Notes: generated by a model not told the origin, from the sequence alone. A DNA stretch of 22,950 nt from Escherichia coli (GCF_003334355.1 NZ_QOWP01000046.1), one strand, 5' to 3'; counted from the first letter of the stretch, positions 476-1,000 are shown. Numbers and translations: made by a program.

Positions 476-1000
476 TTATTGTTTAACCCATAATAGTTCA
501 TTGACATTGAATCCCAACTTTTGAGCGGTACGCACATAGTCTGCTTTTACATTATCTGGAATAGTTTGGGTCCTTGCCAGAATCCATAGGTATTCTCTGT
601 TCGGACCACTGACAAGAGCATACTTATACTCATCATCCAGTTTGATTACATTATAGCCACCATAGAAGGGGCCAAAAAACGAAACTTTCAACGCTGCAGT
701 TTTAGTATCTCCAGTAAAGTATGCTTTACCTTCGCTCTCGCTCCATTTGTTTTTCGTTGGATCGTATCCACGGTTAAGTACGCGAATCCCTCCGTCGTTC
801 CGTTTTTCATAAGTAGCGCTGACCTGTTCCAGACCACGTTCGAACCAGTTCTCGAGGCGAGCTATTTCATACCATTTTCCGAGGTAGCGGTTGGCGTCAA
901 AATTTGTAATCGGCTGCACACCTTTAGGTGGTGTCGGGGCCTTACATGCTATAAGAGTGAAAGAGAGTGCAATGCCAGTCAACACAGGCCATAACTTCAT
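476..1000 (-). CDS. Bacterial lipocalin (Blc-like) outer-membrane lipoprotein
   Basis: 174-aa ORF with a signal peptide and lipobox (…FTLIAC), the lipocalin motif GKWYEIAR, and family-typical blocks (KVSFFGPFYGGYNVI, EYLWILART). ATG at 1000 with an AGGA Shine-Dalgarno upstream. Confidence 0.85.
   Translation of the reverse strand: MKLWPVLTGIALSFTLIACKAPTPPKGVQPITNFDANRYLGKWYEIARLENWFERGLEQVSATYEKRNDGGIRVLNRGYDPTKNKWSESEGKAYFTGDTKTAALKVSFFGPFYGGYNVIKLDDEYKYALVSGPNREYLWILARTQTIPDNVKADYVRTAQKLGFNVNELLWVKQ

Follow-up and report, generated by a model that had tools for sequence, protein, structure and literature searches.

A Blc-type lipocalin gene paired with a rudS-type gene between Q and the holin gene of lambda-like prophages of Escherichia coli: a candidate lysogen-benefit moron

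We analyzed a stretch of 22,950 nucleotides of Escherichia coli DNA (GCF_003334355.1, NZ_QOWP01000046.1; hereafter the window), which harbors on its minus strand a prophage-borne gene for a lipocalin resembling the outer membrane lipoprotein Blc. The original prediction, made from the nucleotide sequence, had described the product as an intact, probably exported lipocalin that might serve the lysogen as a conversion or superinfection exclusion factor. On balance, we favor the view that the gene is a moron of benefit to the lysogen, which belongs to a widespread lineage of lambda-like phages and provides E. coli with a second, horizontally acquired Blc, captured along with the adjacent rudS-type gene. 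The lipocalin gene comprises the following elements:

476-1000, minus strand: lipocalin open reading frame (class-2 Blc paralogue, see below), ATG start, 174 amino acids
947-1000, minus strand: codons of the signal peptide
944-946, minus strand: codon of the lipobox cysteine, Cys19
479-943: part coding for the mature lipocalin domain

Residues 1-174 of the product matched positions 1-174 of the 176 positions of the NCBIfam profile NF007786 ('outer membrane lipoprotein Blc') with 312.6 bits, the curated cut-off being 267 bits, and Pfam Lipocalin_2 (PF08212) matched at 8.6e-43. By phmmer, the protein was aligned with solved E. coli Blc (3MBT, 1QWD, 2ACO; E about 1e-66) without any gap across residues 16-174, and the identity to the Blc crystal structure was 62%. 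Its N-terminus, MKLWPVLTGIALSFT-LIAC, consists of a lysine-containing n-region and a hydrophobic core leading to Cys19, which is followed by Lys20 at position +2. According to the +2 rule of Lol sorting, an aspartate at this position causes retention in the inner membrane. From the lipobox and the presence of Lys rather than Asp at +2, the phage lipocalin is predicted to reside at the outer membrane. The G-x-W lipocalin motif (GKWYEIAR) is present as well, and of the 71 columns with a conservation of at least 98% among 116 full-length homologues, 70 are matched by the protein, the lone exception being R52W. The gene product has been named 'lipocalin family protein' by PGAP (WP_000780584.1) and 'Lipocalin Blc' by RAST, while its sole match in the PHROGs was PHROG 2809, to which no function is assigned. 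Hence, both the assignment as a Blc-like lipocalin gene opposite to the late genes and the intactness of motif and lipobox, the latter read from the sequence, were borne out, and we conclude that this is probably an intact gene for an exported Blc-like lipoprotein.

Around the lipocalin gene, the following features were located in the window:

1-78: end of IS1203 (IS3 family), cutting the Q gene (from the annotation of NZ_AP027697.1)
81-320, plus strand: 3′ part of the antiterminator gene Q, a pseudogene without N-terminus (PHROG 79, 'anti-termination protein Q-like', positions 77-151 of 156)
419-450, plus strand: hairpin resembling an intrinsic terminator, with T-run (9-bp stem, 5 GC pairs, TTTTTCT tail)
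1001-1192: intergenic region between the divergent lipocalin and rudS-like genes
1193-2152, plus strand: RudS-type gene, 319 amino acids, TudS domain plus DUF1722
2550-3272, plus strand: AraC/YdeO-like regulator gene, third accessory gene of the Q-to-holin interval
3341-3362, plus strand: second terminator-like hairpin, just 5′ of the holin gene
3463-5080, plus strand: lysis cassette (holin gene essD at 3463-3678, ydfR-family gene, lysozyme gene, Rz), downstream limit of the accessory slot

The window is 100% identical to DNA of E. coli PSS-12 (NZ_AP027697.1), where it resides at a Qin-type site beside ynfB/speG, whereas most other genomes match it only from base 79 onward. In BL21(DE3) and in phages, the full-length Q gene comprises 378 nucleotides. 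Left of the window, only IS1A and IS1203 were found beside ynfB, while the integrase, repressor/immunity and replication genes are gone. The prophage is thus a defective remnant at the Qin site and, since Q is cut by IS1203 and the early half is missing, its late genes cannot be switched on by the element's own Q. The term 'prophage-encoded' used in the original prediction therefore suits the position of the gene between Q and the lysis genes, but the element itself has decayed, even though complete plaque-forming phages share the same gene order.

The lipocalin gene occupies the classical accessory-gene ('moron') slot between Q and the holin gene, and this held for all contexts that we inspected. 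All late genes (holin, lysozyme, Rz, terminase, portal, head, tail) are on the plus strand, so that the lipocalin gene is antisense to them. The GC content at positions 501-1000, within the lipocalin gene, is 44.8%, whereas the genes for head and tail have 53-63%. The hairpin at 419-450 lies about 100 nucleotides 3′ of Q and at the same time just past the 3′-end of the lipocalin gene; by its position, it appears to resemble lambda tR′ after the late promoter. By analogy with lambda PR′/tR′, a Q-modified late transcript would have to pass through the accessory region in its entirety, reading the rudS-like and AraC-like genes in sense and the lipocalin gene in antisense orientation.

Of 5426 complete E. 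coli genomes, 1135 (21%) harbored the lipocalin gene, nearly always on the chromosome and in full length in 1042, while the 3.4-kb block was covered to at least 80% in 875 complete E. coli genomes. Carriers came from animals (pigs, birds) and the environment (water, sediment) as well as from laboratory strains, and in BL21(DE3) the very same protein (WP_000780584.1) is encoded by the Qin remnant. The order Q, blc (minus strand), rudS, araC-like gene and holin gene also exists in the complete phages IdasGreatGrand, Lambda_ev087 with its relatives and 1H12, and the same Q-to-holin order was seen in prophages at several other chromosomal sites and in viral contigs of IMG/VR. Among 50,697 phage records, 12 records of E. 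coli phages contained the gene; most lambda-like phages are devoid of it. The lipocalins of the Lambda_ev and 1H12 phages share 96% identity with that of the window, and the phage copies in IMG/VR are 96-100% identical, save one partial match of 89% and one unrelated match of 61%. Intermediate phage forms, e.g., a phage still containing merR, were not detected in IMG/VR. An independent Blc homologue (50% identity) is present in Morganella phage IME1369_01 at 6001-6516, between the lysis genes and terminase. As this gene is co-oriented with the late genes, antisense placement is no general rule for phage lipocalins. The same phage also possesses a gene for a lipid A lauroyl acyltransferase (624-1406).

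The lipocalin gene as such is already known: it is annotated, has a PHROG family, is common and counts among the lambda morons described in the literature. Of the 19 lambda-like phages of Mathieu et al. (2020; PMC6969025), more than 50% were reported to have blc as a moron, the protein being 96% identical, and the novelty implied by the original prediction can therefore not be upheld. That a lipocalin in this role is not known as characterized is nevertheless supported, as we found in the literature searched neither experimental work on the phage copy nor a citation of the protein accession WP_000780584. What is new here is the second Blc class, the constant RudS partner, the MerR-linked donor locus, and the pocket conservation together with purifying selection.

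Chromosomal blc loci were surveyed with one genome per species, and 25 loci of class 2 and 15 loci of class 1, a grouping defined in this analysis, were inspected. The phage lipocalin is 59% identical to E. coli's own Blc and 57-63% to class 1, which includes the E. coli K-12 type. Its identity to class-2 Blc is 69-80% overall and 69-79% in the surveyed loci; to the Blc proteins of Cedecea, Enterobacter, Leclercia, Buttiauxella, Raoultella, Kosakonia, Klebsiella, Pantoea and Lelliottia, it amounts to 72-80%. The neighborhoods of the two classes were as follows:

Divergent MerR/MlrA-like gene at about -840 bp: 15 of 25 class-2 loci, 0 of 15 class-1 loci
RudS homologue on the MerR strand: 15 of 25 class-2 loci, 0 of 15 class-1 loci
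sugE, convergent, at +530 bp: 0 of 25 class-2 loci, 10 of 15 class-1 loci

Class-2 loci exhibited two layouts. In layout A, blc is accompanied by a divergent merR-(transthyretin-like)-rudS cluster, in layout B by divergent merR-SnoaL-SDR-amine oxidase-DUF1365-CFA synthase-DUF2878...rudS. The lipid-modification operon of layout B (cyclopropane/furan-fatty-acid type) was seen in Raoultella, Kosakonia, Klebsiella and Cedecea. Three further contexts from Cedecea, Klebsiella and a metagenome contig agree with the class-2 layout. On the metagenome contig, a gene for an 80% identical Blc is accompanied by divergent merR, a transthyretin-like gene and a gene for a 319-amino-acid TudS+DUF1722 protein, which is 72% identical to the window RudS. 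Buttiauxella agrestis, Kosakonia oryzendophytica and Enterobacter sp. EA-1 contain one copy of each Blc class; the presence of both within single genomes indicates that class 1 and class 2 are paralogues. In a neighbor-joining (NJ) tree, the three phage alleles grouped together in 200 of 200 bootstraps, and their clade fell inside class 2.

The 192 bp between the lipocalin and rudS-like genes (1001-1192) are 94% identical among phage alleles. About 125 nucleotides proximal to the phage lipocalin gene could be aligned with the upstream regions of chromosomal class-2 blc and include a -10-like box, which reads TATAGT in the phage (minus strand, 1080-1085) and TATACT in the chromosomal loci. Upstream of phage blc, the similarity stops where the chromosomal loci have the start codon of merR, and blastn of positions 960-1260 against the chromosomal loci disclosed homology solely in the coding ends and the blc-proximal upstream part. 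A MerR homologue was found neither in the window nor in 34 viral contigs. Given that the upstream homology ends at the chromosomal merR start and that rudS was retained while merR is absent, the phage block looks like a class-2 locus minus the regulator and any intervening genes. In our opinion, it is likeliest that blc and rudS were captured jointly, their source being a stress locus on the chromosome of other Enterobacterales. The orientation of the gene and the conserved -10-like box suggest a putative lipocalin promoter within 1001-1192, which may be used in the lysogen.

Some further observations were made on these regions. On a chromosomal contig of Kluyvera genomosp. 1 (L028, about 7930-9522), blc and rudS are arranged back to back without a MerR-like gene; compared to the phage pair, the identities are 72% for Blc and 68% for RudS. 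About 40-75 nucleotides upstream of chromosomal rudS (L011, L013, L017, L027, L041) there is an imperfect palindrome, ACTTGGACAAAT-N9-TTGTGTAAGT, a candidate operator of the MerR-like regulator. In the alignment of rudS upstream regions, this palindrome was not convincingly kept in the phage (window 1096-1192). The short motif GCACTACA occurs upstream of chromosomal blc and of phage rudS alike.

The partner gene at 1193-2152 has been annotated merely as 'YbgA family protein'. Its product matched Pfam PF04463 (TudS, 2-thiouracil desulfurase; 1.2e-39) and PF08349 (DUF1722; 9.4e-40), contains Cys12, Cys44, Cys104 and Cys110, and is 68-72% identical to the chromosomal RudS proteins encoded next to class-2 blc. 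Judging from its architecture, a TudS domain fused to DUF1722, it is of the RudS type. RudS is a tRNA 4-thiouridine desulfidase, which removes photosensitive 4-thiouridine (s4U) from tRNA; its overexpression lowered the s4U content of tRNA and shortened the growth delay induced by ultraviolet A (UVA) light (PMC11417400). The rudS genes sit in MerR/LitR light-responsive operons, and the authors cite the MerR-RudS neighborhood of Enterobacter cloacae (PMC11417400), the very one encountered here. The chromosomal surroundings of class-2 Blc are thus a stress locus for which a link to light has been published. According to the same authors, the stand-alone DUF1722 protein YbgA is all that E. coli has of this kind (PMC11417400), which by our gene counts is untrue for about one strain in five: rudS was present in 1136 of the 5426 complete genomes of the species, its neighbor being in all cases the lipocalin gene (1135). 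In the viral contigs of IMG/VR with enough flanking sequence, rudS was located at a fixed offset beside the lipocalin gene in every case (33 of 33). BL21(DE3), the host used in the RudS study (PMC11417400), contains a rudS gene cut by IS3 after 147 nucleotides. Its lipocalin gene remained intact even though IS3 destroyed rudS and everything downstream.

To assess the ligand pocket, we used the 19 residues located within 4 Å of the ligand in the Blc:heme structure (PMC8177097), whose heme cavity also holds vaccenic acid (PMC8177097). Eighteen of them are identical in the phage lipocalin, the remaining one being changed by K77R, whereas outside the pocket the identity to E. coli Blc is 57%. Among phage alleles, the ratio of nonsynonymous to synonymous substitution rates (dN/dS) was 0.08-0.23 at dS values of up to 0.19. 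Jointly, the phage alleles depart from the 90% consensus of the homologues at only four positions, all of them conservative and two within the signal peptide. By these comparisons, the phage lipocalin is under purifying selection. The conserved pocket, the few phage-specific departures and the low dN/dS form the pattern of a conserved ligand binder and not that of a repurposed receptor masker. The gene is also kept intact in prophage remnants, namely in the window and in BL21(DE3). Of the two roles proposed originally, conversion is in line with the moron slot, the GC content of 44.8% and the dN/dS of 0.08-0.23, while exclusion gained no backing by PADLOC or by an informative PHROG match. The window allele, common to BL21(DE3), exhibits three private replacements (R52W, G65E and P145Q) versus two synonymous private changes. 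A relaxed selection on this allele was considered on the basis of these changes, but the numbers are too small for a test.

What the sequences show is the family, the export signals, the conserved pocket, the purifying selection, the synteny and the origin; from these, we infer promoter use, expression in the lysogen, localization, ligand and physiological benefit as follows. A promoter of its own, located in the 192 bp between the divergent genes, would allow the lipocalin to be produced in the lysogen; its transcript would run antisense to the Q-dependent late transcript and would not depend on it. By virtue of its lipobox and Lys at +2, the protein would then be a Sec substrate, receive its lipid at Cys19 and be delivered to the outer membrane by the Lol system. 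There, the nearly unchanged Blc calyx would bind hydrophobic ligands of the Blc type, namely lysophospholipids, fatty acids and possibly heme/tetrapyrroles. The neighborhood of the chromosomal relatives suggests that the lipocalin may in this way aid envelope lipid homeostasis under stress, be it in stationary phase or under photo-oxidative conditions.

The origin of the block and its RudS partner suggest that about one fifth of E. coli carries a prophage-borne 'photo-oxidative / near-UV stress cassette'. The class-2-linked lipid-modification operon appears to resemble the singlet-oxygen/blue-light regulons of Rhodobacter, Vibrio and Pseudomonas. A more specific idea, which we put forward tentatively and regard as possible though doubtful, is that blc-rudS constitutes a phage-borne 'sunlight kit' derived from a MerR/LitR-type light locus, which has lost its regulator and thereby been freed from dark repression. 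If this were true, the lipocalin made in the lysogen would sequester photosensitizing tetrapyrroles or photo-oxidized lipids, and RudS would strip s4U from tRNA, resulting in a shorter UVA growth delay and in continued translation during induction by sunlight or UV. About a fifth of E. coli strains would then gain a trait that the RudS literature denies the species.

Several points weigh against the interpretation as a stress-related lysogen-benefit moron. The physiological function of Blc itself is unsettled, with lysophospholipid, fatty acid or heme being discussed as ligand (PMC7026729, PMC8177097), and E. coli already has its own Blc, which makes the added benefit of the phage copy uncertain. 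A scan of the minus strand of 1001-1192 for the sigma-70 consensus gave no match, and hexamers picked by eye are only weak -35 candidates. In the window allele, R52, which is 98% conserved in the 116 homologues and adjoins the pocket residues F53 and E54, is replaced by W, a substitution that may weaken the lipocalin. As to the origin, 10 of the 25 class-2 loci are without MerR/RudS neighbors within 9 kb, and the split of the two classes attained a bootstrap value of only 101 of 200 in the simple NJ tree. The presumed light context was deduced from the gene neighborhood, the suggestion of the RudS authors and the sigmaE/ChrR and LitR regulons, and our search of the literature yielded no work linking a lipocalin with these regulons, with photolyase, with MerR plus cyclopropane, or with DUF1365.

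Four other explanations were weighed. Selection may act on rudS and/or the AraC-like gene, the lipocalin gene being carried along by its adjacency in the donor locus and being free to decay in remnants. This would agree with the fact that blc and rudS were never apart in phages (33 of 33 contigs), with the Blc that E. coli already possesses, with the three replacement versus two synonymous private changes of the window/BL21 allele, R52W included, and with the orientation of rudS, which unlike blc is sense to the late transcript. A mere passenger is, however, hard to reconcile with a dN/dS of 0.08-0.23 among phage alleles, with the full length of the gene in 1042 of 1135 genomes, with the 94% conservation of the intergenic region and with BL21(DE3), where the lipocalin gene survived the IS3-mediated loss of rudS and the downstream genes. 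We therefore regard passive carriage as unlikely.

Alternatively, an extra Blc could shift the handling of lysophosphatidylethanolamine (LPE) or heme/tetrapyrroles in the gut and thus modulate the epithelial barrier or immunity. In worms and mice, the chromosomal Blc allele G84E indeed changes both the LPE level and the barrier function of the host (PMC7026729), Blc binds heme at micromolar affinity (PMC8177097) by a pocket that is kept in the phage copy, and the phages of Mathieu et al. were isolated from infant gut E. coli (PMC6969025). The closest chromosomal relatives, on the other hand, have the neighborhood of an intracellular/envelope stress locus, and the carriers span pigs, birds, water, sediment and laboratory strains. 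A conversion of this kind seems rather improbable to us.

We consider it highly improbable that the lipocalin acts in superinfection exclusion, i.e., that it occludes a phage receptor at the outer membrane, as Cor and Llp do with FhuA, or blocks incoming phage. Its placement and orientation are indeed like those of bor/iss and other lipoprotein genes expressed in lysogens, by sequence it is an outer membrane lipoprotein, and the products of lambda morons are predominantly membrane proteins (Mathieu et al., 2020; PMC6969025). Yet none of the PADLOC families matched it at E <= 0.01, and a kinship with known exclusion proteins emerged neither from PHROGs nor from Pfam. Moreover, it is a conservative copy of a chromosomal paralogue, with 18 of 19 pocket residues kept and four conservative phage-specific departures, and its constant partner is a cytoplasmic tRNA enzyme and no receptor-related gene. 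A lytic function as an envelope lipoprotein helping lysis or virion release, to which the adjoining lysis cassette and the co-oriented Blc homologue of IME1369_01 between lysis genes and terminase might point, has hardly any probability, because in E. coli phages the gene is antisense to the late transcript, is kept intact in remnants unable to lyse, and is missing from most lambda-like phages (12 E. coli phage records among 50,697).

The third accessory gene of the interval (2550-3272) matched the NCBIfam model YdeO at 2.9e-32, which is below the cut-off, and resides in an AT-rich stretch with 33-37% GC. It is more variable than the lipocalin and rudS genes, being 77% identical to the Lambda_ev087 copy and occurring on 25 of 34 viral contigs, and the copy of strain 144 has a frameshift. 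It belongs to the same general class as the enterohemorrhagic E. coli prophage regulators PsrA, PsrB and PatE. Farther downstream in the window, an Rfam cspA thermoregulator (114 bits, 5297-5681, plus strand) was detected ahead of cspI, followed by ynfQ, ynfR, ynfN and gnsB. The genes cspI-ynfQ-ynfR-ynfN-gnsB make up an accessory block for cold shock, which separates the lysis genes from those for packaging.

By way of lambda-like prophages, E. coli has apparently gained a second Blc paralogue and a RudS-type desulfidase, both derived from a stress locus under MerR control that is native to Enterobacter, Klebsiella and their relatives. The pair would provide a testable case of a phage-mediated transfer of an environmental-stress trait, and the occurrence of two Blc paralogues with the same pocket in one cell would be a natural experiment on Blc function.

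Finally, the phage lipocalin was compared to known systems. Cor (phi80/N15/HK022) and Llp (T5) are, like it, phage-encoded envelope lipoproteins, but no homology of the lipocalin to them was detected in PHROGs, Pfam and PADLOC. Cor and Llp are small phage-specific proteins that are not known to have chromosomal housekeeping orthologues. With lambda Bor/Iss, which has been linked to serum resistance, it shares the property of being a small outer membrane lipoprotein encoded antisense to the late operon near the lysis genes, and the genes co-occur in prophages; a relationship by sequence or fold does not exist. The precedents named in the original prediction (Bor, Cor and Llp) thus hold for the position and for nothing beyond it. 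Two related prophages with the lipocalin-rudS block carry an antisense iss gene, a bor homologue, just after Rz (L090, 9149-9442; L091, 9097-9390). The 'blc' moron of Mathieu et al. (2020; PMC6969025) is the same gene in the same order Q-blc-ybgA; these authors named blc and cited its proposed role in membrane biogenesis, while the paralogue class, the RudS partner and the donor locus are not part of their report. E. coli K-12 Blc (1QWD, 2ACO, 3MBT) has the same length and lipoprotein architecture and can be aligned without gaps, but the overall identity is 59%. It belongs to the sugE-linked class, whereas the relatives of the phage copy lie beside a MerR-like gene and rudS, and the phage copy itself is phage-borne instead of residing at the chromosomal blc-sugE locus. 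The closest counterparts are the class-2 chromosomal Blc proteins, with which it has in common 69-80% identity, the -10-like box and the rudS neighbor on the opposite strand, and from which it is set apart by the loss of the MerR-like regulator and of the intervening genes, by its lower GC content and by its place between Q and the holin gene.

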